Part shown: positions 1,828 through 16,644 of the stretch, piece after piece | Layout of the letters: the number at the start of each line of letters is the position of its first letter | Numbering within the stretch: position 1 is the stretch's first letter | Source: Candidatus Saccharimonadales bacterium | GTDB taxonomy: Bacteria; Patescibacteriota; Saccharimonadia; Saccharimonadales; UBA10212 | Length of the DNA stretch: 64,000 nucleotides | Direction: 5' to 3' | NCBI GenBank assembly: GCA_035480715.1 | Contig: DATIHL010000007.1 | Coordinates: forward strand, 5,828 to 69,827 | Translations under genes and position numbers: made by a program | Notes under the pieces: generated by a model | The model's input: only the letters and a program-made list of their open reading frames with translations | The model's database searches: none | Told to the model about the DNA's origin: nothing

Positions 1828-2247
1828 TTAGCTTGTAACTTGTTTTAGGACGAACCTAACCAAGACTTGGGCTAGAGCTACGATGATTAAGCCTATAACT
1901 GCATAGAGGATAGTATTTTTGGCACTTGTTACACCTGTATCGCTACCGCCGCTGGTGATATAGCGCAGGCCGCCCACAATAATCATAATTACAGCTACTA
2001 CGCCCACTATCAGCGATAGAAGGTTAATTACCGTATGGATAAGATTATTGATCTTGGCCGTAGCATCACTCGTACCGCTACAATCGCCAGTAGGATTATC
2101 AGTAAAGTGCAATTCAGCACCGGCGCATAATCCACTGTTAATCTGCTGCTGGCCGGTTTGAGCATAGGCTGGTATAGACTGACCCAAGAATAGTAAGCCG
2201 GACAAGCAACCAATACTTAGGTACAGCCTCATAAGAAATCTTGTCAT
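1828..2247 (-). CDS. T4SS pilin-like protein (VirB2/TrbC-type), paralogue 1
   Basis: 139 aa. It has a signal-like N-terminus ending ..SIPAYA, then a two-Cys variable loop (CAGAELHFTDNPTGDC). The conserved two-helix module follows: INLLSLIVGVVAVIMIIVGGLRYITSGG..AKNTILYAVIGLIIVALAQVLVRFVL. Confidence 0.65.
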   Translation of the reverse strand: MTRFLMRLYLSIGCLSGLLFLGQSIPAYAQTGQQQINSGLCAGAELHFTDNPTGDCSGTSDATAKINNLIHTVINLLSLIVGVVAVIMIIVGGLRYITSGGSDTGVTSAKNTILYAVIGLIIVALAQVLVRFVLKQVTS

Positions 2248-2290
2248 GGTTATTTTTAGAGTACAGTTAAATTAACTGAAAAAGCAAGTT

Positions 2291-2740
2291 CTAGGTAGCT
2301 TGCGTAGTCTTTTGTAGTACAAACCTGACGATGACTTGGGCTAGGGCTACGATAATCAAGCCGATTAAGGCATAGAGTATGGTATTTTTGGCAGCAGTAA
2401 CTTTCTCGCTGGAACCGCCACTAGTGATGTAGCGGAAGCCGCCAACGACGATCATGATTACGGCAATCACACCGACAATTACTGATAAAATATTGATTAT
2501 TTTGGTAATTATATTATTGAAATTACTAGTAGTATCTTCGACGGTACAGGTTGTAGAGCCGGTACTGCCTAGGTTTGAAGGAATGGTTTGCGAGAAGTCG
2601 CCGTTGGCTGTAGTACAAACTTGCCCGGTAATTGGGCTATTGGCAGTTTGGGCGTTAACCGCAACGGGCACAGCTAGTGGTACCGCTACCACCAATGCAG
2701 CGCTGAGAGACATTAACGTGTTTTTAATTTTTTGTAACAT
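2291..2740 (-). CDS. T4SS pilin-like protein, paralogue 2
   Basis: 149 aa. Signal-like N-terminus (..VAVNA) and a two-Cys loop (CTTANGDFSQTIPSNLGSTGSTTC). The C-terminal module is INILSVIVGVIAVIMIVVGGFRYITSGG..AKNTILYALIGLIIVALAQVIVRFVL. Confidence 0.65.
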   Translation of the reverse strand: MLQKIKNTLMSLSAALVVAVPLAVPVAVNAQTANSPITGQVCTTANGDFSQTIPSNLGSTGSTTCTVEDTTSNFNNIITKIINILSVIVGVIAVIMIVVGGFRYITSGGSSEKVTAAKNTILYALIGLIIVALAQVIVRFVLQKTTQAT

Positions 2741-2813
2741 TTTGGTTAGTTCCTTTATTTGGTTTATCTAATTACCTATAAGTATATATGCACTTTTATG
2801 TTAGTCAAGATGC

Positions 2814-3245
2814 TTATACTTTAGTGGTTTTGGCTAGCACGAACCGGACGATGACTTGGGCTAGAGCTACGATGATTAAGCCAATAATCGCGTATAGTAG
2901 CGTGCTTTTAGCTGATGATATTTTATCGGAAGAACCACCGCTGGTAATATACCGAAAACCAGCAATCACTATCATGATTACGGCAATAACAGCGACGATT
3001 ACAGAGATAAGATTAATAATCTCGGTAATAATAGTATTGAACGTTTTAGTTTCAGCAGTCCCGGTGGGACATGCTGCCGCGGTCCCTTCAAGATGAAGGT
3101 TTTGCGCTCCAGAGCAAACTCCTTGTTGAACCGCGTCAGCTGCCAAAGCCGACACGGGGAGTAAAAGATTGAAACTTAACAAAAACGCTAATGCTAGCAT
3201 GGAAGCTTTTATTTTATTAATCATTTTGATCCTATCTATACTCAT
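2814..3245 (-). CDS. T4SS pilin-like protein, paralogue 3
   Basis: 143 aa (an alternative ATG at 3224 is possible). Signal-like N-terminus and two-Cys loop (CSGAQNLHLEGTAAAC). It carries the same C-terminal module. A 29-bp stretch at 2854-2882 is identical to 1865-1893 in paralogue 1. Confidence 0.65.
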   Translation of the reverse strand: MSIDRIKMINKIKASMLALAFLLSFNLLLPVSALAADAVQQGVCSGAQNLHLEGTAAACPTGTAETKTFNTIITEIINLISVIVAVIAVIMIVIAGFRYITSGGSSDKISSAKSTLLYAIIGLIIVALAQVIVRFVLAKTTKV

Positions 3246-3247
3246 AA

Positions 3248-3637
3248 TTATTGTATTACTTTGCCAAGCACAAACTTAACAATCGTCTCTGCTAGGGCTA
3301 CTATAACCAGCCCTATAAGGGCATAGATAATGGTCTTTTTAGCGCTAGCCACGGCTTGGTCATTGCCACCGCTGGTAATATAGCGAAATGCTCCAATCAC
3401 TAACATAATCACAGCTACTATTCCAACTACTGTAGACAAAATGTTGATTATAGCATCTAAGGTTTTATCTAGACTGCCGGTTGGAGCTGCAGCTGTACAA
3501 CCCTGACCAGCTGCGGCATTAATGCCGCACTGTATATCGCTTTTTGTAGCTGTGGCAGCTAAAACAAGGTTGCTCGAGGCAAAGATTGAAATGGCAGAGA
3601 TTGCTGTGAATAGTAATATACTTTTTATTTTATTCAT
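3248..3637 (-). CDS. T4SS pilin-like protein, paralogue 4
   Basis: 129 aa. Signal-like N-terminus (..NLVLA) and two-Cys loop (CGINAAAGQGC). The module is INILSTVVGIVAVIMLVIGAFRYITSGG..AKKTIIYALIGLVIVALAE. Confidence 0.65.
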   Translation of the reverse strand: MNKIKSILLFTAISAISIFASSNLVLAATATKSDIQCGINAAAGQGCTAAAPTGSLDKTLDAIINILSTVVGIVAVIMLVIGAFRYITSGGNDQAVASAKKTIIYALIGLVIVALAETIVKFVLGKVIQ

Positions 3638-3644
3638 CGTTTTA

Positions 3645-4061
3645 TCATTGAATCACTTTATCAACTACAAATCTAGTGATAGTCCAAGCCAGAGCTACTA
3701 CTACAATCCCAATAAGTGCATATATAATTTGACGCCGGGCACCAGCTGCCTGTTCAGCGTTACCGGCGGCTGTAGCATACCTGAGCCCACCAATAATTAT
3801 CATGATAACTGCTATAACGCCCGTAACAACGGCAATAACATTAGCAGCTACACTAATGACGCCGTTAGGCCCAGCGATCGGATCTGTAGTGCCTTGTTGC
3901 TTAGCTTGAGTACAGACATTACTATTAGCTCCGTTACATGCCTGGCCAAATAAACATGCCTGGCCTTTACAGGCTTGCGCCTTAGCAACTGACGCGACGG
4001 AAACCATTGACGTGACTAAAATAAGTGCTAAAACCATTATCTTCAAGATTTTTATCATCAT
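3645..4061 (-). CDS. T4SS pilin-like protein, paralogue 5
   Basis: 138 aa. Signal-like N-terminus and a four-Cys region (ACKGQACLFGQACNGANSNVC). The module is diverged: VTGVIAVIMIIIGGLRYATAAG..ARRQIIYALIGIVVVALAW. Confidence 0.6.
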   Translation of the reverse strand: MMIKILKIMVLALILVTSMVSVASVAKAQACKGQACLFGQACNGANSNVCTQAKQQGTTDPIAGPNGVISVAANVIAVVTGVIAVIMIIIGGLRYATAAGNAEQAAGARRQIIYALIGIVVVALAWTITRFVVDKVIQ

Positions 4062-4339
4062 AGTCGTACTACTACAAAATTAACTATGGCTGCAGCCGAA
4101 GCTGCAATGATCAGGCCAATAAGCGCATAGATGAGCATGTTTTTGGCCTCGGCTATTTTATTAGGCTCACCCTGAGCAAATACGTAACGCAGTCCAGCAA
4201 TTACTATCATTAGAAACGCCAATGCGCCAACGATAATAAATATAATATTTAAAATTTTAGTAATGTCGTCTTGTGTGGCGTCATTATGATGGGGAAGGTT
4301 ATTCGCGTTAAGAAGTCCTTGTGCGATGTAATTAATCAT
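4058..4339 (-). CDS. T4SS pilin-like protein, short paralogue 6 (no signal peptide or Cys loop)
   Basis: 93 aa. It has only a short polar N-terminus followed by the two-helix module IVGALAFLMIVIAGLRYVFAQGE..AKNMLIYALIGLIIAASA. It overlaps paralogue 5 by 4 nt. Confidence 0.55.
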   Translation of the reverse strand: MINYIAQGLLNANNLPHHNDATQDDITKILNIIFIIVGALAFLMIVIAGLRYVFAQGEPNKIAEAKNMLIYALIGLIIAASAAAIVNFVVVRL

Positions 4340-4348
4340 TATGGTTAT

Positions 4349-4732
4349 TTATGTTAGTGTATTGGCGAGAAATGCCACCAGGCCAGTGGCAATCAAGGCT
4401 ATCGCTAGACCTATTAAGGAATTATACAAGCGTTTACGTGCAGCAGCAGCCTTTTCTGGTTCGCCGGTAGCAGTAATATACATTATCCCTGCGATTATTA
4501 TCGATATAACTGCTACAAAACCAGCGAGTCGAACTAGCATGTCCAAGACCGCTAAACCGATCAACCAGAAGTCATTGATGTTAAAGCCGCTAACAGTAGG
4601 TGTGCAATCTGGCCCTAAATTCAAATATTTGTACCAGGTCGGCAGGAAAAAAAAGAACCTAGTTTTATTACCGCAATCCACCGCAAAAACAAATGGTAAA
4701 TATTTTATAAGCGCTATTGCGGGTAAAATCAT
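4349..4732 (-). CDS. T4SS pilin-like protein, divergent paralogue 7
   Basis: 127 aa. The N-terminal part is different, with two Cys (VDCGNKTRFFFFLPTWYKYLNLGPDC). A two-helix module follows: VAVISIIIAGIMYITATGE..ARKRLYNSLIGLAIALIATG. Confidence 0.55.
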   Translation of the reverse strand: MILPAIALIKYLPFVFAVDCGNKTRFFFFLPTWYKYLNLGPDCTPTVSGFNINDFWLIGLAVLDMLVRLAGFVAVISIIIAGIMYITATGEPEKAAAARKRLYNSLIGLAIALIATGLVAFLANTLT

Positions 4733-4735
4733 TAC

Positions 4736-5014
4736 TTAAAATACCCCTTGTCCCGGTATAAGCCACTTTATAAATGCATACACGAAAATGAATGCAAAAA
4801 GTGCAATTAAGGCATTTGTGATTCGTTGTTTTGCAGATTGTATACCATTTGGATTGTCGCCAGATGCGGCGTATTGGATACCGCCTAGTATTATTGCACC
4901 GACAACCACAACTCCTACTCCAATGGCCAGAAAATCTACGAATTTTTGAATGTCGTTCCAAATAAACTGACTATCATCGGCAAAATTATGGCTCACAATT
5001 TTTAATATTTGCAT
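4736..5014 (-). CDS. T4SS pilin-like protein, short paralogue 8
   Basis: 92 aa and first in the minus-strand operon. The module is IGVGVVVVGAIILGGIQYAASGD..AKQRITNALIALFAFIFVYA. It has no signal peptide. Confidence 0.5.
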   Translation of the reverse strand: MQILKIVSHNFADDSQFIWNDIQKFVDFLAIGVGVVVVGAIILGGIQYAASGDNPNGIQSAKQRITNALIALFAFIFVYAFIKWLIPGQGVF

Positions 5015-5150: not shown

Positions 5151-7979
5151 ATGAGCATCAGACAAAAATTTGGAATTGGGCTAGTGTTACTTTTAACGCT
5201 TACTGCAGTGAGTATTTTTCTGCCCAAAAAAGCTTCTGCTGCTACATTGTCAGATGCGTCCTTTAAATCCCCGACAGCAACATACAATGTGACTGCTACC
5301 TATAAAGCTAGTGATGGCTCGTCCTACTACCCAAGCGATCTTCTGTTATTCATATCAGGCGTAACTCCTCTAACTGGTCAGTTGTTTTTTAATGATAGCA
5401 ATACCTCAGATGGAACTTACCAGTTAAAGTTTAATGGCAACACTTATGTTTGCCCGGGAGCTACGATTGATGTAAACAAAGGTTCTCTACAAGCGATACC
5501 AAATAATGGTGGTACGCAATGGACTGGTGTATTGAACCTTAAGTATGTAACAGATTCTATGGCAAATTGTAGCAATGGATCGTCTATTACATTAGCTCCC
5601 ACAACTATTACGCTTGTGGATAAAAGCACCTCGCTATGTAGCGATAGTAGTGCACCGGATGCAAATGGCAAATGCTCCGATGGCAGTGTAGCGCTACCTA
5701 TCGCAAATATACTTAATGGCACTACCCCTTCATGTAGTAACGGCTTTCAAAACCCGCCAGCGTGTGATACTTGTTTAAACGGAACGACGATCACCCCTTG
5801 TACGAGTGACTCACAAACTTCTCCTCCACCGCTAGCTGCCAGCGCCACAGCTACCACTTGCGAGGACGCTTTCAGCTGGTTGTTTGAATGGATAGTTTGC
5901 CCGGCACTGAGAATGACTAGCAACGCAGCAGGAGCGCTGAATGATTTCATTGAAGGACAACTATGCGTGAACTCCGGTGCTAGTACTACAGGAGGGGCAA
6001 CATGTACTAATACAGCTAGTATTTACGGTAGCAATAACCCTGATTCATCACAGGTACACCAGGCATGGGATTCTTTTAGAAAGATTGCCACTGCACTGCT
6101 AGTCATTCTGATGCTGGTGATGGTGATTGCACAGGCTTTTGGCGGCGGACCGTTTGAAGCTTACACCGTCAGGAAAATGCTTCCCAAGATAGTAGCTGCT
6201 GTCATTTTGCTGCAGTTTTCTTTCGTCCTCACTAAATTTGCAATTGATATTTCCAACGACCTAGGGAAGGGTATCCAGGCATTGCTTTACGCGCCATTTG
6301 GCGGCCCTGGCGCTATGGGATTGGATAAACTAGTGGGGCATACTTTAGCTAATCAAAATCAGGGTCTTAACGACTCTGCATTGTTTTTTACTGCATTGGC
6401 GCTTGGTACAGGACTAGCAATAGGTGCTATAAGTTTGCCTCTAATCGCTCTGTTGGCACTTTATGTGTTGCTGGCGCTGTTTACAGCCTTTGTTGTGCTG
6501 GTATTGCGAAAGCTTTTTATTATTCTTCTAATAGTACTTGCCCCAATAGCTTTCGTTCTGTGGATTCTACCAGGCACCGAAAAATACTGGAAAATGTGGA
6601 AGGATAACTTTACCAAACTGCTAATGATGTTCCCGATTATTATGGCACTAATTGCCGCCGGAAGAATTTTTGCCCTTATAACATCCACTTCTCAAACAAC
6701 CGCTCTAATGCCGCATTTGGCAGTCGCGCATCTTGGTCCGCTCCCTGTTCCCTACTTTAGTAAAGTGACCACTTTTATTGACTTGGTTATTGTGCTTTTG
6801 GCGTTTTTTGGCCCATACTACCTGCTGCCTAAAGCATTTACGTGGGGAGGAGCGCTTATGGAGATGAGCGGTAAAGGAGTTAAAGCCGGTCTTGATAAAG
6901 TCGCAAGCCCAGGAAAAGAATATCTTAACTGGCGCCAGGGTATAACACCTTGGAAACAGGCCCGCGCTGCCCGCAGAGCAGAAATAGAGAGGCGATCGAA
7001 AACTGGTTTTTATGAAGGTTTAGCCTCTGGTGGAATCCGTGGTGGTATTAGACGCGCAAGACTCGGTGGCGTCCCAAGGCCTACCAGAGGCGGTATAGAG
7101 AATGAAAGATCACTTCGTGGCAGAATAGTACAGCAAGCCGAAGCCGAAATCGAAAAAAACCGAAGAGAAGAAATTCAACGTGCTACCCTACAATTAATGC
7201 AGCGGGATTTAGCACAATATCATCCCGATGATCATGACCGAATAAGGAGAGCTATTATCAGCGGCGAGACACTCAATGACGTCCACTTAGCACATGAAGA
7301 TACAGTAGATCCGGTAACCGGTGCTGCCATAGCTGGCACGCATGAGTTCAATGGGGCAGAATATGCAGGCACACATGACCATGGATTGCGGGCAGCGCTT
7401 GATAGAGGCGTAGTTCATGGACACTGGAGAGATATAGAATCGTATGTTAGGCGAACTATGGCTAGTGGAGATCAGGAACGAATAGCTGAGCTGCAAGATT
7501 TCTTGCAACAAAATTCGGCAGCTATTGGCGATCAAATGACACATCTTCTTAAAGGTATGAATATTGCCGCTACCAGTAAGCCAGAAAGCATTGTCAAAAT
7601 GAGACAAGAAGAGATAGAAAGCGTATTAGGCACACTCAGTAGTAGAGTAGCCGGCGGAGGCCCAGGGGCTGCTGAAGCTGCGGGCCAGCTAAGTGTCTTT
7701 TTACAGAACTATGCTACTACGGCTGCTGATGGCCGACTGCGCACACAGCTTGATCAAGGTGGAGCCAGAGCAGTAAAGGCTTTTGTAGCTAACGATCCCG
7801 GTATGCTGGATGTGATAAATAACGATCCTGCCCACGGCGGTCTGGATGCTCGCGCAAGGCTAGGGTTGGATACTGTAGACGGAACAGTAGCGCTTGGATT
7901 AGCCGCAGCCGACCCTACTACCGGTACCTCTATGAGAGATCTGCATGCTCGTATTTCTGATACCGGCGTTATTAGATAG
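5151..7979 (+). CDS. VirB6/TrbL/PrgH-like polytopic T4SS membrane protein with a Cys-rich exodomain and a long cytoplasmic tail
   Basis: 942 aa. The signal peptide ends ..KKASA and 12 Cys lie in the first ~290 aa. A block of about 7-8 TM helices spans roughly aa 310-570. An Arg/Glu-rich soluble tail of ~370 aa follows. Its position next to the pilins and upstream of the PrgI/VirB4 genes matches Gram-positive T4SS synteny. No sequence-specific motif was recognised. Confidence 0.55.
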   Translation: MSIRQKFGIGLVLLLTLTAVSIFLPKKASAATLSDASFKSPTATYNVTATYKASDGSSYYPSDLLLFISGVTPLTGQLFFNDSNTSDGTYQLKFNGNTYVCPGATIDVNKGSLQAIPNNGGTQWTGVLNLKYVTDSMANCSNGSSITLAPTTITLVDKSTSLCSDSSAPDANGKCSDGSVALPIANILNGTTPSCSNGFQNPPACDTCLNGTTITPCTSDSQTSPPPLAASATATTCEDAFSWLFEWIVCPALRMTSNAAGALNDFIEGQLCVNSGASTTGGATCTNTASIYGSNNPDSSQVHQAWDSFRKIATALLVILMLVMVIAQAFGGGPFEAYTVRKMLPKIVAAVILLQFSFVLTKFAIDISNDLGKGIQALLYAPFGGPGAMGLDKLVGHTLANQNQGLNDSALFFTALALGTGLAIGAISLPLIALLALYVLLALFTAFVVLVLRKLFIILLIVLAPIAFVLWILPGTEKYWKMWKDNFTKLLMMFPIIMALIAAGRIFALITSTSQTTALMPHLAVAHLGPLPVPYFSKVTTFIDLVIVLLAFFGPYYLLPKAFTWGGALMEMSGKGVKAGLDKVASPGKEYLNWRQGITPWKQARAARRAEIERRSKTGFYEGLASGGIRGGIRRARLGGVPRPTRGGIENERSLRGRIVQQAEAEIEKNRREEIQRATLQLMQRDLAQYHPDDHDRIRRAIISGETLNDVHLAHEDTVDPVTGAAIAGTHEFNGAEYAGTHDHGLRAALDRGVVHGHWRDIESYVRRTMASGDQERIAELQDFLQQNSAAIGDQMTHLLKGMNIAATSKPESIVKMRQEEIESVLGTLSSRVAGGGPGAAEAAGQLSVFLQNYATTAADGRLRTQLDQGGARAVKAFVANDPGMLDVINNDPAHGGLDARARLGLDTVDGTVALGLAAADPTTGTSMRDLHARISDTGVIR

Positions 7980-8018
7980 ACATTTTTCATGCTTTAAAGT
8001 ACTAGAACTAGATCCTAC

Positions 8019-8047
8019 TTGATATATTATGCGTAATATGTTAAAAT
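8019..8047 (+). promoter_or_regulatory. candidate promoter for the GC-rich 4-TM ORF
   Basis: TTGATA (8019-8024), a 17-nt spacer and TAAAAT (8042-8047). The RBS GGGAGGA at 8093-8099 precedes ATG 8108. Confidence 0.35.
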
Positions 8048-8107
8048 ATAGAAAGTCGAAGTTGTTATTTCGGCTTGTTCTTCTTCAACTTTTGGGAGGA
8101 TACAAAG

Positions 8108-8611
8108 ATGTTCTGGGCAGTAATCTTCGGATTTGGCGCCTGGGCCGTAATCGGATACCTAATCCCGTCGGCCTCCGACCATCTCACAGCAGCCAGGAAG
8201 ACGGATGAGAAGCTACGGCAGACGCTGGATGCCCTCGCTATGGCGACAGCAGCAGACAGGCCCAACTTGCTGCGGATAGCTGAGCGGCACAGGCAAACGC
8301 GCAACGACCACTACTGGAGAGCAGCGCCTTGGCTGGTTGGCAGCCTGGGCCTGTATGTCTGGGGTATCTGGGCTCTGAGCCTGGGTTTCTCTGGAAGTCA
8401 GACAGCCGTTCTCGTGTTCGGGACAATGTTCCTGGGCGCGGCCTTTGCGTTGATCAGGCAACGAAGGCGTAACTGGCGGCGGTTTGCAGGTTGGCGGACG
8501 ATCCCCGACCCCCTCGTCCGTCGGCGCACTTTCGTAGCCTCAAGACTCAATGCTGTTGGGCTGGTAATTTGTCTACTGGCCGGCAGTCTGATCCTGGGCT
8601 TCGGCCTGTAG
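8108..8611 (+). CDS. hypothetical 4-TM membrane protein encoded on a GC-rich insert
   Basis: 167 aa from ATG 8108 (the track ORF begins at 8075). There are four hydrophobic helices: FWAVIFGFGAWAVIGYLIP, PWLVGSLGLYVWGIWALSLGF, AVLVFGTMFLGAAFALI and AVGLVICLLAGSLILGFGL. The loops are positive-inside (RQRRRNWRRF). Third codon positions are strongly G/C-biased, unlike neighbouring genes. Confidence 0.55.
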   Translation: MFWAVIFGFGAWAVIGYLIPSASDHLTAARKTDEKLRQTLDALAMATAADRPNLLRIAERHRQTRNDHYWRAAPWLVGSLGLYVWGIWALSLGFSGSQTAVLVFGTMFLGAAFALIRQRRRNWRRFAGWRTIPDPLVRRRTFVASRLNAVGLVICLLAGSLILGFGL

Positions 8612-8757
8612 GCCACCACGCGAGAGGAAGGTGATAGCAGTTGGACAAGCTGCTTTACCGGTTCGGGCTTGGACTGTTCAAGGTCCTCGCTCGGGCTGCC
8701 CGCACATTGGTCAATTGGCTGTTTCATCGCCCATGAGACCAGCACATCCTCCCTAGA

Positions 8758-8791
8758 CCCAGCCGTAGTTGCACATTGAACTACGGCTGGG
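8758..8791. repeat. 13-bp perfect inverted repeat (stem-loop) in the GC-rich non-coding tail
   Basis: CCCAGCCGTAGTT-GCACATTG-AACTACGGCTGGG. The loop octamer GCACATTG also occurs at 8702-8709. Confidence 0.6.
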
Positions 8792-8827
8792 CAGGCCTAG
8801 TGGAACGATCAAGTTCAAGGGGCTAAA

Positions 8828-8881
8828 CGGCAGGAGTTTTGAGTGATCCATTCACTCACCACTTCCTGCCGCTTTTCATTT
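8828..8881 (+). terminator. compound hairpin plus T-run; candidate intrinsic terminator closing the GC-rich insert
   Basis: The outer stem is CGGCAGGA (8828-8835) paired with TCCTGCCG (8864-8871). The inner stem is GAGTGA/TCACTC. CTTTTCATTT follows the structure. Confidence 0.45.
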
Positions 8882-8894
8882 ATAAACGCTTATG

Positions 8895-8921
8895 TTGCTA
8901 TGAGCCATAAATTGGTATACT
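8895..8921 (+). promoter_or_regulatory. candidate extended -10 promoter for the PrgI-like/VirB4 operon
   Basis: TTGCTA (8895-8900), a 15-nt spacer and TGgTATACT (8913-8921). The spacer is short, so confidence is low. Confidence 0.3.
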
Positions 8922-9030
8922 AAAAATAGCTGAAAGCTCAGAGCTGAGGGCCGAGAGCTCTAGAGAATGAGAACAAATAAATACATTAATGTAGCTAAGG
9001 ATTACAAGCTAACAGCTTAAGGCTAATTTT

Positions 9031-10041
9031 ATGGCTGTTTATAAAGTTATTCAGGACATAGAGGCCGAAGACAGGCTACTTGGGCCTTTGACGCTTAAGG
9101 GGTTTATATATGCATTGACGGCGGGGGCCCTTGGTTTTATTAATTTTAAACTGTTAATGTCTCCTGAGCTTGGCGCGATTCGTTGGCTATTGGTACTCCT
9201 TTTTGGGCTACCAATGCTTTTATTTATGGTATTAGCTTCACCATTGGGACGTGAGCAACCCACAGAAGTCTGGCTATTATCGCGCGTGCGTTTTTTGGTA
9301 AAGCCAAGAAAGAAAATCTGGGACCAAAGCGGACTTAGCGATCTGGTAACAATTACTGTCCCACCGAAAGTTGACCGGCACCTTACAAAAGACTTGAGCC
9401 AGGGTGAAGTACAGGGTCGACTGGAATCACTAGCAATGGCGATGGATACCGGCGGCTGGGCCGTAAAGAATATAAATGTCAATTTAAATACTCAGCCCAC
9501 TTATCTGGAGAATGGTGCCGCAGACTCTGACCGCTTAGTTGGCGCTTCGAGCCTAACACAGAATGTGCCGGTGATTGATATTCACCCGGCCGACGATATT
9601 ATGGACGAACAAAACAATCCAACAGCACAGAAATTTGAGGGTTTAATGCAACAGAAAGATGCCAAGCGCAAAAAAGAAATGGCCGAAAAAATTAATAATG
9701 CCAGGAATGATAGCCAGCCCAGCCAACTTCAGCCTAAAGAATCATCTGCTCAAAAGGTGGATAGTGCCCAAACTGTCACTAAGGAGCCAGCGCAGGCGGC
9801 CAGACAATTCCATTTTAAACAGCCCCAGACAAATGATACCCCTCAGAAGTCCCAGCTCCCACCCGCGTCAAATCAATCAGCCCTACAAAAATCAGAGGTG
9901 ACAGTCGAAAGTAGAGCTGATAAACTGGAGCTAGCCCAAAGTGGTAATGATTTAAGTGTGGCGTCAATTGCACATTTAGCTAATCGGCAGCCTAGGATAC
10001 AACAGGTTAGCCCAAACGAGGTAGTAATTTCCTTGCACTAG
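9031..10041 (+). CDS. PrgI-family (VirB3-like) T4SS membrane protein with a long Q/P/S-rich C-terminal extension
   Basis: The N-terminus MAVYKVIQDIEAEDRLLGPLTLKGFIYALTAGALGF.. followed by a second TM helix matches the PrgI-family opening pattern. About 200 further residues are low-complexity (QPSQLQPKESSAQK..). Confidence 0.6.
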   Translation: MAVYKVIQDIEAEDRLLGPLTLKGFIYALTAGALGFINFKLLMSPELGAIRWLLVLLFGLPMLLFMVLASPLGREQPTEVWLLSRVRFLVKPRKKIWDQSGLSDLVTITVPPKVDRHLTKDLSQGEVQGRLESLAMAMDTGGWAVKNINVNLNTQPTYLENGAADSDRLVGASSLTQNVPVIDIHPADDIMDEQNNPTAQKFEGLMQQKDAKRKKEMAEKINNARNDSQPSQLQPKESSAQKVDSAQTVTKEPAQAARQFHFKQPQTNDTPQKSQLPPASNQSALQKSEVTVESRADKLELAQSGNDLSVASIAHLANRQPRIQQVSPNEVVISLH

Positions 10042-12929: not shown

Positions 12930-15386
12930 ATGGCTACAACTACCAGAACACCAGAAAGAAAACCAGAAGAGGATAATAACCCCGGGCAGGAGGACTTCGA
13001 CAAATTAATAGACAAGAACTTCAGCAGCGGAGATGAACGAATGATGGAGGAGCGCGCCAAAAAGGGCGCAGCTAGTCCAGAAGACTTAGCTGAAGACGAA
13101 AAAAAAGCCGGCGGGCCAGCAGAGGCCAAAGGCGCTACAGACGAATCTAAGCGCTTGCAGCCGACCCATGAAAATACTGTCGGTGACGGCTATAAGGGCT
13201 CAGGGCTTAAAAAAGAAATGCGCCTGAGTTTTGGCAGACTCAAAATTACAAAAAAACGCGGCATAGGCGCCGGAATCATTGCCGCCATTTTAGCTACCCT
13301 AATTGCTGTGTTCACTATTACATCCGGCCCGCTGCAGCTACTTCATTTGGCACAAATACTTAAAAAAAGCTGGCACCACCAGGAAAAAATATCGGTCCAC
13401 AGATCTAAAGGCTTATTCCGCTACTTTAGAGCAAATAACATTGGAGAGACTCGTGTAGGCTGGGTGGGTAGCAAAGTTATGACGCGACTAACGGGCCAGC
13501 TTAAAGATGTAGGCGTAACATTCGAAACCAACTCCAATGGCTCGCCAATTAAAGCCACGATAGATACCAGCAAGCACCCCGAATTTCAGGATTTACTCAA
13601 ATCCGAAAGGCGAGACCAAGTTATTAAAGTTTTTGAGGCCGATCCGAACTTGGTCGGTCAATTACGTGAAGGAAGATTTATAGATATAACTTTCGGCCCC
13701 AACACATTTAAAGGCATTGATTATGTTAGATTTTTCCTTAAGACATCGCTAGACCATCTACAGAGTGGCGCTATCGCAACCGCCCTTAGCTTTAGGGTTG
13801 CAACTAGATTCTACGACGTGCCAAGTCTGTTCCACCCACTTAAACGAGCCTTAGCCAAAATTAAGAATGGTGTAGTGGCTGAAACTCCTATAGAAACTAG
13901 GCAGCAGGAAGAAACGCGAAACCAGAATTTGGAAAGATCGGTTACCGAGAATCCAGAAGCCGTGAGCGCCAGGGATAAAGTTAAAGACGCGCTAGGAAGA
14001 GATGACATCCAGACAGCAGTAAGAACGCTTAACGCTGCATTGATTGGAGAAGCCGCTCTTTGTAGCATCTGGGATGCGACAGGCAAGATTGTTCAGTATA
14101 ACCGTTACTTTGTCGTCTTGCCCACGGTACTCCAGGCGGTGGACAAAATGGCCGCTGGCTCTCAAGCTCAATCTGGTGAGGATTTTTACCTAGGGCAGCT
14201 CGGTGCAATAGTTACAAGCTTTAAGGACGCAAATGGTAAAACTATTTGGAACTCCAAGCCTCTACAAGTGTTGGCAGGCAACCCGAATCCGGGCGGTCAA
14301 GATTTACCTAAAAAATACGGTGAAGCCTTCCATGGAAGTACGACCGCCGATAATATAAGGCAGAAGCTAAAGGAATTTGGCATAAGCGGAGGTACATTTG
14401 GAAGCTGCGGTCTATTCGGGCAAATCCTTAGCGGCCTAACTAATGCGTTTTTAATTGTAGCTGGATTCTTCACATTTGGAGGCACGTGGGCAACATATGC
14501 AGCAAAGACGGCTGCTACTGCAGCTGCATTTGCGGCCGTAATGATTATTGCTCAGCAACAATTTGAAGATCTTATAAATAATACCGATGTAGTTCCTAAG
14601 ATCCTGAGCGGCCCATTGGGCGGCAGTCTTTTGGCATTCGGCTCCCGCGAAGCAGCTAATATCAGTGCTCGCTCTTCGGGTGGTACTGCTATGCCAGGCA
14701 CAAGTACCACGACTTTATCCCTTAATGATCAGAGGCAGGACCAGCAACAATTCCAATCCGAACCTTTTGCTAAAAGAGTGTTTGATGTACATGACTACCG
14801 TTCTGTCATATCAAAGCTCATAGATAGGCCGAGCACCAGTCCGTCGGAAAACTTAAGCAGTGTTGCGAATTTCTTCGCACATCCGGCAAGACTTTTCTCT
14901 GGTCTATTTTCAGTAATGCAGCCGCATGTCCAAGCCGCCGGTACATATGACTGGGGATTCCCGCAATATGGTATAGAGGAGGGCTTAGCAACAGACCCAA
15001 ATTACCAAGATCCCTACGACAACGGGGATAAAGTTGCCGTTATGTTAGATAACGGTGGATGCGCTGATGATAGCAACAAACAAGATAACGGTTGTAGCTT
15101 GAGAGACAGAGCCATGAACTGTTTTGGTGTTGATATAAGTAAATATAGCACCGACGCCAGTAAGTATAGTTTAACAAGTTATGGAGATCCGGGACAGTGG
15201 AGTGCCGTCGCTGTTAAAGATGTCGACCCATACAGCGACGGCTACAAGAACGCTAGATGCGATGACACCAGTACAGAATGGCAAAGAATAAAGTTGTTTG
15301 TTTTTGATTCGCGCTTAATGGATTCTATGGCCTGTTACGATAACGACGCCCAATCATGTACAAATGTGGCTTCTTCTAACGGATAG
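12930..15386 (+). CDS. large orphan membrane protein of the T4SS locus
   Basis: 818 aa. The N-terminus of ~110 aa is acidic/basic and looks disordered. A TM helix (GAGIIAAILATLIAVFTI) is followed by a later hydrophobic pair (LTNAFLIVAGFFTFGGTWATYAAKTAATAAAFAAVMIIA). The last ~110 aa contain 6 Cys. No family recognised. Confidence 0.65.
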   Translation: MATTTRTPERKPEEDNNPGQEDFDKLIDKNFSSGDERMMEERAKKGAASPEDLAEDEKKAGGPAEAKGATDESKRLQPTHENTVGDGYKGSGLKKEMRLSFGRLKITKKRGIGAGIIAAILATLIAVFTITSGPLQLLHLAQILKKSWHHQEKISVHRSKGLFRYFRANNIGETRVGWVGSKVMTRLTGQLKDVGVTFETNSNGSPIKATIDTSKHPEFQDLLKSERRDQVIKVFEADPNLVGQLREGRFIDITFGPNTFKGIDYVRFFLKTSLDHLQSGAIATALSFRVATRFYDVPSLFHPLKRALAKIKNGVVAETPIETRQQEETRNQNLERSVTENPEAVSARDKVKDALGRDDIQTAVRTLNAALIGEAALCSIWDATGKIVQYNRYFVVLPTVLQAVDKMAAGSQAQSGEDFYLGQLGAIVTSFKDANGKTIWNSKPLQVLAGNPNPGGQDLPKKYGEAFHGSTTADNIRQKLKEFGISGGTFGSCGLFGQILSGLTNAFLIVAGFFTFGGTWATYAAKTAATAAAFAAVMIIAQQQFEDLINNTDVVPKILSGPLGGSLLAFGSREAANISARSSGGTAMPGTSTTTLSLNDQRQDQQQFQSEPFAKRVFDVHDYRSVISKLIDRPSTSPSENLSSVANFFAHPARLFSGLFSVMQPHVQAAGTYDWGFPQYGIEEGLATDPNYQDPYDNGDKVAVMLDNGGCADDSNKQDNGCSLRDRAMNCFGVDISKYSTDASKYSLTSYGDPGQWSAVAVKDVDPYSDGYKNARCDDTSTEWQRIKLFVFDSRLMDSMACYDNDAQSCTNVASSNG

Positions 15387-15411
15387 TCGTGAAATGATGG
15401 GCATTAATCGA

Positions 15412-16644
15412 ATGAAAAATAACAAAGTAAAAAAAGCAAGAGTGATGCTCAATCTTGCATTGAGCATCACTTTAAGTTGCATACTTCTATTAGTAGAGAT
15501 GCCCTTTAAGGCCGGAGCAATATCGACCGATCAAAGAAGAGTTTACAACTCTGGTACTTATTATTATGATTCCAGCAGCACTTCAACTACTGGAATTGGT
15601 GGCTGCCAAACCCCGGGTACGCAGCTACCTGGAAATACAATCGGGGAACAGGTTTTTAACTTTTTTGTTACCACCGGTGGCTTTTCGAATGAATCTGCTG
15701 CAGCGATAACTGGCAATCTACAGGTTGAGTCGGCCGATTTTACTGTAATTGATGGCTGGGGTGGCGGAGGCGGAAACTACTACGGTATTGCTCAGTGGTC
15801 CAGGGATGATAGATATGTTAAGCTCGTCCAATTTGCCGGTAGCACTCAAAATGCCGCTCAATTACCTTATCAATTAAACTTTATAATGTACGAGCTGAAG
15901 AATGGCTACAGCTCAACTTTGACGTATTTACAAAGCCCCAATTATTCAGTGTCAGAAAAAGCCATTTACTGGGGCAGAAACTATGAGGTGGCTGTCAATG
16001 CAGACGGTAGCCTACAAGCCGAGGCCCAGCGGGTAGCTGACGCACAAATTTGGTATCAGAGAGCTACGGGCAATCCCGCTCCACCAGACACTTCTCCAAC
16101 CGGCAACTGTACGGGCAATGGTTCCGGATCCGGAAATGGAGGTGGTGGAGGCGGAGGTGGAACGGTTGACGGTTGTACTAATCCGTTCCCCGGTGGGTGG
16201 GCGCCCAGCCGTTTGGACATGGGCTACGACGGGACATTTAGTGGCCAAGTTGCTGCGCCATGCGCGGGTACAATCACTTATGCCTCCGATAGTTTCTCGA
16301 ACTGGGGGGGTTGGATTGAGATAAAGCTCGATCAAAAACCCTCCACCTTAGCAACCTCAACTATTTATTTTGCTGAGGGTATTTCGCCAATAGTCCGCTC
16401 TGGGCATGTTAATGCTGGCGACCCGATTGGCAACGCCGTTCCAAATAGAAATTGGAACGGTATCGTCGGCAATATTGAGTGGGGCGTAGCTCAAGATGGA
16501 TCCGTCGGCACCCCAACCAACACCTATGTCTATGGACAATGCGGCTCAGCAGGAGCCGCCGCGTCAGTTTTTGCCTTTGTCCAGTGGGCAGAATCACTCG
16601 GGGTCGCAGCGCCCACATCGACTGATAACGCAGGTTGTCCATGA
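15412..16644 (+). CDS. secreted cell-wall hydrolase: phage-tail-lysozyme-like domain plus degenerate LytM/M23-like domain (VirB1/PrgK analogue)
   Basis: The start is taken at MKNNKVKKARV.. (ATG 15412). A signal anchor is followed by FSNESAAAITGNLQVESADF..YGIAQWSRDDRY..QLNFIMYELKNGY, a phage-tail-tip-lysozyme-type pattern. A Gly-rich linker (GNGSGSGNGGGGGGGG) separates it from an M23-shaped segment: DMGYDG..APCAGTITY..GGWIEIKLD..GHVNAGDPIG. Confidence 0.7.
   Translation: MKNNKVKKARVMLNLALSITLSCILLLVEMPFKAGAISTDQRRVYNSGTYYYDSSSTSTTGIGGCQTPGTQLPGNTIGEQVFNFFVTTGGFSNESAAAITGNLQVESADFTVIDGWGGGGGNYYGIAQWSRDDRYVKLVQFAGSTQNAAQLPYQLNFIMYELKNGYSSTLTYLQSPNYSVSEKAIYWGRNYEVAVNADGSLQAEAQRVADAQIWYQRATGNPAPPDTSPTGNCTGNGSGSGNGGGGGGGGTVDGCTNPFPGGWAPSRLDMGYDGTFSGQVAAPCAGTITYASDSFSNWGGWIEIKLDQKPSTLATSTIYFAEGISPIVRSGHVNAGDPIGNAVPNRNWNGIVGNIEWGVAQDGSVGTPTNTYVYGQCGSAGAAASVFAFVQWAESLGVAAPTSTDNAGCP

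Follow-up and report, generated by a model that had tools for sequence, protein, structure and literature searches.

The GC-rich block between the VirB6-like and PrgI-like genes of a Saccharimonadales T4SS gene cluster is real, and it forms a self-contained accessory unit of transcription with two genes. Taken as a whole, and with a probability of roughly 0.6, this unit (the cassette) is read as an old resident of the T4SS locus whose high GC content is a trait of its family; its function is graded separately. The window refers throughout to the entire 64 kb stretch of DNA that was analysed, and all positions are given in its coordinates.

Organization of the unit

The cassette is lodged in a chromosomal T4SS cluster, where it follows the stop codon of the VirB6-like gene and precedes the PrgI/VirB3-like gene together with that gene's native promoter (Table 1). 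An AT-rich promoter of its own comes first; then follow a 5′ hairpin, a strong SD, ORF167, the 31-aa peptide, a further hairpin and, last, a two-tier intrinsic terminator. Of 53 related loci, 28 have no cassette here and measure less than 80 nt from the stop of the VirB6-like gene to the start of the PrgI-like one, which gives the unit an accessory character and agrees with the preliminary description of an interrupted, otherwise colinear T4SS operon. No direct repeats were found at the cassette edges and no integrase or transposase genes beside it; its neighbours are T4SS genes only, and tRNA genes are ~7.6 kb distant. The flanking proteins carry consecutive locus tags in an nr record, which therefore has no gene model in between; annotation may miss the cassette genes, perhaps owing to their atypical composition.

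An assembly or binning chimera, in which foreign high-GC DNA had been joined into a Saccharimonadales contig, had been raised as an explanation, and the abrupt change in GC is the sole point that speaks for it. Both junctions, however, are 100% identical in five separate single-run Logan assemblies (L002-L006, five runs) and in the NCBI MAG, and unrelated studies yield homologous cassettes in identical context. Since the junctions are reproduced at full identity in five single-run assemblies, the cassette is not a chimera, and the probability left to this explanation is negligible.

Table 1. Features of the cassette and of the genes on either side, with positions in the window.
Feature	Position	Strand	Description
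VirB6/TrbL-like T4SS membrane protein	5151..7979	+	942 aa; PF19590 TrbL_3 on record
Promoter-like site P1	8019..8047	+	TTGATA-17-TAAAAT, TG before the -10, 10/12 matches
Stem-loop at the predicted transcript 5′ end	8053..8076	+	Local fold
CU-rich stretch and SD	8077..8100	+	GTTCTTCTTC and GGGAGGA (8094-8100); mutual pairing predicted by local fold
ORF167	8108..8611	+	Predicted inner-membrane protein of 167 aa; four long helices
SD region of the small ORF	8622..8634	+	GAGAGGAAGGTGA; L009 and L029 show GGAGGTGA-type sites with identical spacing
Small ORF	8641..8736	+	Cationic amphipathic peptide of 31 aa, MDKLLYRFGLGLFKVLARAARTLVNWLFHRP; starts with TTG
CU-rich motif	8746..8753	+	AUCCUCCC, complementary to the ORF167 SD
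Hairpin H1	8758..8791	+	13 perfect pairs, 8-nt loop
Two-tier intrinsic terminator	8823..8881	+	Outer stem GGCAGGAG/CTTCCTGCC, inner stem GAGTGA/TCACTC, T-run
Probable native promoter of the PrgI/VirB4 genes	8895..8921	+	TTGCTA ... TGGTATACT; outside the cassette
PrgI/VirB3-like protein	9031..10041	+	336 aa; PF12666 PrgI at 22.8 bits (cut-off 27)

The first gene encodes a predicted membrane protein, and the four transmembrane segments that had been described for the 167-aa ORF are recovered as a four-helix AlphaFold2 model (pLDDT 90.4), in which TM1 is followed by a cytoplasmic helical hairpin, TM2, TM3, an Arg-rich loop and TM4. Homologues are found at E values from 1e-24 to 6e-05. Searches against Pfam, NCBIfam, PADLOC and PHROGs return sub-threshold matches alone (DUF3040, SCO2097 and RseC). 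Residues 37-122 match DUF3040 (PF11239) with 20.6 bits and E 5.5e-4 against a gathering cut-off of 24.7, a match that two of seven family members give at E<1; the same residues match SCO2097 with 14.8 bits, far under its cut-off of 110. Both actinobacterial proteins resemble ORF167 in placing a cytoplasmic helix ahead of two transmembrane helices; unlike them, ORF167 has two extra transmembrane helices and the Arg-rich loop. A Foldseek search of the model against the PDB gives a best match at E 0.84, and a sequence-profile search of the PDB nothing below E 0.8. Long ORFs are also present on the minus strand, as expected in GC-rich DNA; neither their sequence nor their position is conserved, and they were rejected as genes.

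The second gene lies in what had been taken for a ~260-nt GC-rich non-coding tail; this tail does contain two hairpins, but 8641-8736 is a conserved 31-codon ORF, with an SD 6-8 nt upstream. The peptide is present in five of the eight known cassettes (profile E 1e-15 to 1e-21). Its codon differences comprise 92 that are synonymous only versus 76 that change the amino acid, and are distributed over the three codon positions as 83/41/134; the excess at third positions and the many synonymous changes indicate that the small ORF is protein-coding. Identity reaches 0.67 in the peptide frame (frame 0) but 0.38 and 0.30 in the two alternative frames, and frame 0 alone has no stop in any copy. The peptide is strongly amphipathic (muH 0.58, matched by at most 0.05% of shuffles), has a net charge of +5 in the window and of +5 to +7 across copies, and is predicted to fold as one helix spanning residues 3-28 (pLDDT 81).

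The two genes are framed by expression signals, and the AT-rich promoter, the RBS and both strong hairpins of the preliminary description are indeed in place. A ATGTTAWAATAT-type, AT-rich -10 lies upstream of every full-length homologous cassette; the 5′ hairpin keeps its position in most homologous loci with a different sequence. The SD ends 7 nt ahead of the ORF167 ATG, and similar CU stretches that pair with the SD also occur in L009, L014, L087 and L088. In the predicted minimum-energy fold of the whole transcript, positions 8094-8101 pair with the downstream CU-rich motif; a TCCTCC-like motif precedes H1 in the window, L087, L088 and L090 (TCCTCT), and weakly in L091. The 5′ stem-loop could serve mRNA stability, and pairing between the CU stretch and the SD may be regulatory.

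At the 3′ end, L014, L087, L088, L090 and L091 have a long, perfectly paired hairpin in the place of H1, unrelated to it in sequence, and no equivalent is present in L009 or L029. The terminator (8823-8881, -26.8 kcal/mol) forms a hairpin over 8825-8874 with a T-run at 8873-8881, and was missed by a simple terminator scan because its stem is two-tiered. It folds alike in all eight loci, at -23 to -33 kcal/mol: the outer stem varies yet stays paired, the inner one is conserved, and the T-run follows in every locus except L014. The structure of the 3′ UTR has a z-score of -6.95. Rfam finds two tRNAs alone at gathering scores in the whole window, and within 7900-9100 its best match (E 0.18) is far under the gathering score, so this is not a known ncRNA. 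Just beyond the cassette, the promoter assigned to the PrgI/VirB4 genes is probable on sequence grounds, as TTGCCATAA...TATACT/GATACT is conserved in cassette loci and TTGTCA-17-GATACT stands in the cassette-free L007; a consensus scan did not flag it because its spacer is 15 nt. The prgI leader (8922-9040) was considered as a structured element and rejected (z -0.63), as what it shares with close relatives is conservation of sequence only.

Composition, distribution and age of the cassette

Between ~8108 and 8870 the GC content is 58.8%, where the window averages 45.1% (z 4.5, with an sd of 0.030 among windows of 760 nt), which makes the cassette the GC maximum of the whole window; the value is 0.602 for ORF167 and 0.560 for the 3′ part. 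The compositional edges are sharp: a 120-nt profile runs at 0.55-0.65 inside, at 0.32-0.33 over 7940-8119 and at 0.35-0.43 over 8840-9079, and the last blocks of the upstream VirB6-like gene have a GC3 of 0.33-0.38. ORF167 has a GC3 of 0.68 versus 0.455±0.047 in the 48 other ORFs of the window, a value reached by none of 1062 same-size in-gene windows and lying 5.9 sd above an expectation corrected for amino acids and local codon usage. Leucine is encoded by CTG at 13 of 23 positions, arginine by CGG at 7 of 19 and isoleucine by ATC at 7 of 9; arginine makes up 11% of residues versus 1% for lysine. The sliding profile thus bears out the preliminary description of a block of ~60% GC within flanks of ~30-45%, the strong third-position bias of its ORF is real, and the term foreign-looking is apt insofar as the anomaly reaches synonymous sites.

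Several simple causes of this composition can be set aside. A regional GC-biased process spreading into the flanks is ruled out by the GC3 of 0.33-0.43 in the adjoining VirB6/PrgI blocks, and the raised GC at the 3′ end of the VirB6-like gene comes from first and second codon positions. The amino-acid bias of a membrane protein as the sole cause is likewise ruled out, the amino-acid expectation being 0.46; pilin genes in the same locus have a GC3 of 0.30-0.47. Folding of the ORF mRNA is ruled out by the coding part's z-score of -0.38.

Eight cassette copies are known (the window, L009, L014, L029, L087, L088, L090 and L091), all of them from Saccharimonadales and all at the same site between the VirB6-like and PrgI-like genes. 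Relative to many relatives the cassette is an insertion; seven other genomes carry orthologous copies. The five copies with an available VirB4 gene belong to one VirB4 clade of Saccharimonadales in an NJ tree drawn without support values, and the cassette-free L007 (a near relative), L010, L023 and L068 are interspersed within this clade; in L007 and other cassette-free relatives the flanking genes are <80 nt apart. An exhaustive HMMER search of 1.84e9 representative proteins returned five matches, all of them in Saccharimonadales T4SS loci and none outside; blastn and tblastn against plasmids and phages gave no match, viral contigs yielded no relative, and a scan of metagenome contigs found L088 again and nothing else. 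Relatives also carry different insertions at this junction; ten ORFs from these have no Pfam match and are unrelated to the cassette.

The copies have diverged deeply. Cassette proteins are 19-46% identical among the eight loci (19-29% for L029 against the remaining copies), and K4 ranges from ~0.6 (0.64) to saturation for the cassette, with 1.0-1.3 for VirB4. Cassette identity correlates with identity in the N-terminal 110 aa of the PrgI-like protein (63-80% identical across relatives) at r 0.71, a coefficient that rests on non-independent pairs among eight copies. The VirB4-like divergence, together with the tracking of PrgI identity, points to an old resident and not a recent import. In line with this, cassette subtypes go along with VirB6 C-terminal types, L009 with L091 for example. 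The cassette would have been in place since before these genomes diverged, evolving fast like the hypervariable C-terminal 372 aa of the VirB6-like protein (28-33% identity to relatives), and it would have been lost repeatedly.

The composition is shared as well. Cassette GC is near-constant at 0.58-0.63 in seven of the eight copies across host GC3 values of 0.41-0.65; the L090 cassette is not GC-rich, and that of L029 matches its higher-GC host (host GC3 0.65, z 0.6). Cassette GC3 lies 3.5-8.8 sd above expectation in six of eight loci and is uncoupled from the host (0.71 at a host GC3 of 0.41, 0.66 at 0.53). As six of eight copies are GC-rich relative to their own genome, high GC is a family trait, and the codon usage of ORF167 appears to reflect this trait rather than recent import. 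What has to be explained is a long-resident gene at ~61% GC inside genomes of 45-50% GC.

Explanations for the GC-rich composition

The main reading of the preliminary description, recent horizontal transfer from a high-GC donor, draws on the atypical GC and GC3 and on the near relative L007, which lacks the cassette; the evidence assembled here makes it very improbable. Orthologous copies occupy the same site in seven other genomes at 19-46% identity, with K4 comparable to VirB4, and cassette identity tracks flank identity. An identifiable donor, which had also been proposed, failed to appear in the proteins, plasmids and phages searched, where donor-like sequence is found nowhere and the homologues are Saccharimonadales T4SS copies only. 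The promoter, SD and terminator are common to the family and native-looking, and flanking direct repeats and mobility genes are lacking. Horizontally acquired genomic islets show the same discontinuity in GC and GC3, presence/absence polymorphism and an ORFan gene; the cassette differs from them in having no mobility genes, repeats or donor, and in that orthologous cassettes have diverged as far as core T4SS genes and are still atypical.

An ancient transfer at the base of the clade, from a very GC-rich donor such as the actinobacterial host of an epibiont, with 58-63% GC as a state of incomplete amelioration, is possible but doubtful. It would account for the sharp compositional edges, the confinement of the cassette to one clade, codon usage of a high-GC type (CTG, CGG, ATC and GCC, with R far above K) and the sub-threshold similarity to actinobacterial DUF3040 (20.6 bits) and SCO2097 (14.8 bits). 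These matches, however, stay under the gathering score and are shared by two of seven members (DUF3040) or fall far below 110 (SCO2097), and the 1.84e9 representatives contain no homologue outside Saccharimonadales. Cassette GC3 is independent of host GC3, and on a rough estimate the ancestral GC3 would have had to be near 1 to fit a K4 of ~0.5-0.65 per lineage. Alternatively, the composition could be actively maintained, either by selection on a long-lived transcript or by repeated exchange from higher-GC Saccharimonadales, a suggestion that we put forward only tentatively. Under transcript selection the mRNA would lack AU-rich sites and be capped by 5′ and 3′ hairpins, in keeping with the 5′-terminal hairpin, the strong SD and the very stable 3′ hairpins (z -6.95); the near-constant GC in seven of eight copies regardless of host GC3 and the compositionally native cassette of L029 also favour maintenance. 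Against this stand the coding part, which shows no excess RNA structure, the L090 cassette, which is not GC-rich, and the identity of 19-29% between the L029 cassette and the others, by which it is not a recent source. We know of no case in which selection has kept one gene at a GC content 15 points higher than that of its genome.

Possible functions

The T4SS is among the few systems conserved across Patescibacteria. It is chromosomal, occurs almost throughout the group and has no known role in conjugation; its components, PrgI included, have been reported as essential for epibiotic growth in Ca. Southlakia epibionticum (PMC12102498). Exclusion proteins of other systems are small, membrane-bound and unrelated in sequence to one another, and transfer works without them; they are directed against the cognate homologue of VirB6, with cytoplasmic regions involved in some systems (bioRxiv 10.1101/2021.01.25.428195). 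By analogy, ORF167 could be a T4SS-associated factor of the exclusion or immunity type, with the peptide as an optional partner or cargo, a proposal that we favour among the possible functions but that remains conjectural. Its two cytoplasmic Arg-rich regions would act on or with the cognate variable C-terminal domain of the VirB6-like protein, and the peptide would lie flat on the membrane. The ORF167 gene sits directly 3′ of the TrbL_3/VirB6-like gene wherever that side is present, and the cassette subtypes L009/L091 and window/L088 share similar VirB6 C-termini, a pattern that linkage alone would produce and that concerns few loci. Entry exclusion (TraS of F, Eex of SXT/R391, YddJ of ICEBs1) is similar in that its factors are small, membrane-located, T4SS-accessory and fast-evolving, are encoded right after a VirB6-type gene and have a partner with a variable specificity region. 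The likeness ends with ORF167 itself, which resembles no known exclusion, immunity or T4SS protein in sequence or fold, and with a T4SS that is chromosomal, needed for epibiotic growth and not known to conjugate (PMC12102498); for the last reason the term exclusion may be meaningless here.

Another reading pairs a toxic or effector peptide with an immunity protein: the peptide would be membrane-active and possibly exported by the T4SS, and ORF167 would protect the producer. Leaderless bacteriocins and peptides of the phenol-soluble-modulin type are amphipathic peptides with small polytopic immunity proteins. The cassette shares with these families a leaderless cationic helix of ~30 aa beside a small multi-helix membrane protein, and the peptide's amphipathicity, its charge of +5 to +7 and its predicted single helix fit such a role, as does the placement of the gene pair within a secretion-system cluster. 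The membrane protein is present in all eight cassettes, the peptide has been lost in three and the reverse is never seen, which is the pattern of orphan immunity genes. On the other hand, the peptide has neither a signal or leader sequence nor a dedicated exporter gene adjoining it, it resembles neither known bacteriocins nor known type I toxins, it is missing in three of a mere eight known loci, and the gene order, with the membrane protein first, is uninformative; we therefore regard this reading as unlikely. Drawing both analogies together, the cassette would be a private two-gene, T4SS-linked module for toxin/immunity or kin exclusion whose GC content is actively held ~15 points above the genome, a combination that we consider rather unlikely.

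If that is true, an epibiotic clade of Saccharimonadales carries such a module inside the very secretion system required for life on its host. Placed beside the variable VirB6 domain, the cassette is a candidate determinant of T4SS specificity, self-protection or regulation. More broadly, a sharp GC island need not signal recent transfer, and the persistence of such an island in copies that have diverged as far as core genes is a small puzzle in genome composition.

Composition and assembly of the GC-rich block

The block between the VirB6-like and PrgI-like genes is as distinct as the preliminary description, which reported a GC-rich cassette with G/C third-position bias, had proposed. At 0.588, the GC content of 8108-8870 is the maximum of the whole 64 kb (window mean 0.451, sd 0.030 in same-size windows; z 4.5), and a 120-nt profile gives 0.55-0.65 inside the block, 0.32-0.33 immediately before it and 0.35-0.43 immediately after it. 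ORF167 has a third-codon-position GC (GC3) of 0.68 compared with 0.455±0.047 for 48 other ORFs, a value matched by none of 1062 in-gene windows of equal size. Resampling codons from local usage with amino acids held constant gives an expected 0.46±0.04 (z 5.9), and the anomaly extends to synonymous sites: CTG accounts for 13 of 23 Leu codons, CGG for 7 of 19 Arg codons and ATC for 7 of 9 Ile codons (Arg 11% of residues, Lys 1%). The GC3 step is sharp, with 0.33-0.38 in the last VirB6 blocks and 0.43 in the first PrgI block. Being a small membrane protein does not explain this composition, because GC3 is ordinary or low (0.30-0.47) in all eight pilin genes of this locus. GC is raised as well (0.52-0.575) at 7580-7940, in the 3′-terminal part of the VirB6-like gene, owing to codon positions 1 and 2 of an Ala/Gly/Arg/Asp-rich domain; this stretch lies outside the compositional island because its GC3 is only 0.35-0.38. 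The second-highest GC of the window (~0.53) coincides with a Phage_lysozyme2-domain gene, presumably encoding a VirB1-like cell-wall hydrolase. The tRNA-Ser pair, ~7.6 kb away, is unrelated to the cassette.

The suggestion of an assembly chimera is excluded. A protein identical to ORF167 is encoded by a contig of an NCBI MAG (GCA_964543325.1) and by separately assembled contigs of SRR9179559-63; the order VirB6-like, ORF167, PrgI-like and both junctions (100% identity) are common to the MAG contig and all five single-run assemblies. Annotation places the flanking proteins in Candidatus Saccharimonadales. Three of the single-run contigs (L002-L004) terminate at 9937-9950, within the C-terminal half of the PrgI-like gene, a variable region rich in Q/P/S, which suggests strain-level heterogeneity there. 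In NCBI nr the flanking proteins HSX17876.1 and HSX17877.1 carry consecutive locus tags (VLE51_00790, VLE51_00795); because no gene model lies between them, both ORFs of the cassette (8108-8736) appear unannotated in that record, possibly owing to their atypical composition.

Features of the cassette and its T4SS neighbourhood
Feature	Position	Strand	Details
Two adjacent tRNA-Ser genes	238-430	minus	anticodons GCT, TGA
Eight tandem paralogous T4SS pilin genes	1828-5014	minus	PF18895, 92-149 aa; divergent from VirB6-like gene
Promoter-like site	8019-8047	+	TTGATA-17-TAAAAT
Shine-Dalgarno (SD) sequence		+	GGGAGGA, 7 nt 5′ of ORF167 start
ORF167	8108-8611	+	ATG start, 167 aa
Small ORF	8641-8736	+	31 codons; TTG start, SD GAGAGGAAGGTGA
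CU-rich motif	8746-8753	+	AUCCUCCC
H1	8758-8791	+	perfect 13-bp hairpin
Two-tier terminator	8823-8881	+	
Phage_lysozyme2-domain protein	15364-16644		426 aa; within T4SS cluster

Distribution, age and origin of the cassette

Besides the query itself, four homologues came out of an exhaustive HMMER search through 1.84 billion representative proteins; a profile search contributed two more, and one truncated copy (L029) emerged on scanning 80 related T4SS loci taken from species-representative genomes. All eight distinct cassettes (window, L009, L014, L029, L087, L088, L090, L091) lie directly 5′ of a PrgI-like gene and, wherever the upstream side is available, directly 3′ of a TrbL_3/VirB6-like gene. 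Insertion into an otherwise colinear operon is borne out, as these two genes are <80 nt apart in 28 of 53 related loci, including L007, a near relative in the VirB4 tree. L007 retains a promoter-like TTGTCA-17-GATACT site ahead of prgI; the cassette therefore lies downstream of the VirB6 stop codon and upstream of the probable native promoter of prgI. Across L007-L086 this junction varies: in the other 25 loci it spans 0.5-2.6 kb with unrelated ORFs of 121-790 aa (no Pfam match in 10 tested), some of which, such as two paralogous ORFs 5′ of the L087 cassette, may be VirB6 C-terminal domains that have split off.

Sister genomes give a mixed answer on presence: seven share the cassette at the same spot, and it is missing from L007 and from loci interspersed within the single VirB4 clade that holds the five cassette-bearing loci whose VirB4 gene is available. 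Recent horizontal acquisition, as initially proposed, is contradicted by sequence divergence. Cassette proteins are 19-46% identical pairwise, and their four-fold-site divergence (K4, 0.64 to saturation) equals or exceeds that of VirB4 among the same genomes (K4 1.0-1.3; 82-88% protein and ~76-79% DNA identity). Cassette identity rises and falls with N-terminal identity of the neighbouring PrgI (r 0.71, with non-independent pairs), and two visible subtypes pair with similar VirB6 C-termini. This pattern is in keeping with long co-residence and repeated loss.

GC-richness recurs through the family: in six of the eight loci GC3 exceeds expectation by 3.5-8.8 sd. In L029, whose genome is GC-richer, the cassette is compositionally native, which leaves L090 as the sole exception. 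No trace of the high-GC donor envisaged earlier emerged from scans of plasmid, phage, viral and metagenome sequences, and actinobacterial hints were confined to sub-threshold matches. By our rough estimate, the divergence of the cassettes leaves barely enough room for an ancient transfer in which the donor had a GC3 near 1 and amelioration has been partial. Cassette GC is near-constant (0.58-0.63) whatever the host GC3 (0.41-0.65), which may point instead to maintenance of this persistently atypical composition.

A micropeptide gene and RNA elements

The ~260-nt tail, described at first as non-coding with two hairpins, does contain the hairpins; it also holds a 31-codon ORF (product MDKLLYRFGLGLFKVLARAARTLVNWLFHRP) kept in five of eight cassettes. 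Codon differences are synonymous-only in 92 cases vs 76 amino-acid-changing, fall 83/41/134 on positions 1/2/3, and identity is 67% in frame, against 38% and 30% for the two remaining frames, a comparative pattern providing evidence that the ORF is probably translated. The peptide (net charge +5 to +7) is predicted to form one helix and is strongly amphipathic (muH 0.55-0.66, reached by ≤1.1% of shuffles).

The promoter-like sequence and the RBS ascribed to ORF167 were both located. The terminator has a similar fold in each of the eight loci, with a conserved inner stem (GAGTGA/TCACTC) and an outer stem varying in sequence with pairing retained. The 3′ UTR is much more stable than shuffles (z -6.95); the coding part shows no such excess (z -0.38). 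Two CU-rich stretches complementary to the cassette gene SD, also noted for L009, L014, L087, L088 and L090, lie at 8077-8100, just 5′ of the SD in a local hairpin, and ahead of H1, where a TCCTCC-type motif pairs with the SD in the predicted whole-transcript fold; they could serve translational control or a 3′-UTR-derived RNA. The ~110-nt prgI leader (8922-9030; L087 2790-2878) shares sequence blocks such as AGCTCTAGAGAATGAG and AAGCTAACAGCTT with close relatives, and shows no excess predicted structure (z -0.63).

Possible roles in the T4SS

The AlphaFold2 model of ORF167 (pLDDT 90.4), oriented by the positive-inside rule read from sequence, agrees with the four-TM protein with R-rich positive-inside loops anticipated earlier: it predicts a long helical hairpin in the cytoplasm linking TM1 to TM2, a short outside loop between TM2 and TM3, and an Arg-rich loop on the cytoplasmic side between TM3 and TM4. 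Fold and family searches gave no matching known fold or family. Conjugative exclusion proteins are small, membrane-bound, dispensable and sequence-unrelated between systems, and their target is the VirB6 homologue of the cognate system, in some cases via cytoplasmic regions (10.1101/2021.01.25.428195). We infer that these may be the nearest functional analogy. The cassette adjoins the VirB6 C-terminal domain, which evolves as fast as the cassette itself (28-33% identity). A toxin/immunity logic for peptide and ORF167 would also fit, the peptide being lost from three of eight cassettes and the membrane protein retained in all eight.

Patescibacteria T4SSs are chromosomal, homologous to monoderm conjugation machinery, and have components reported essential for epibiotic growth (PMC12102498); accessory genes are not mentioned in that paper (the word 'accessory' occurs 0 times). 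These results leave a clade-restricted, uncharacterised cassette that is accessory to the Saccharimonadales T4SS and carries an overlooked micropeptide gene.
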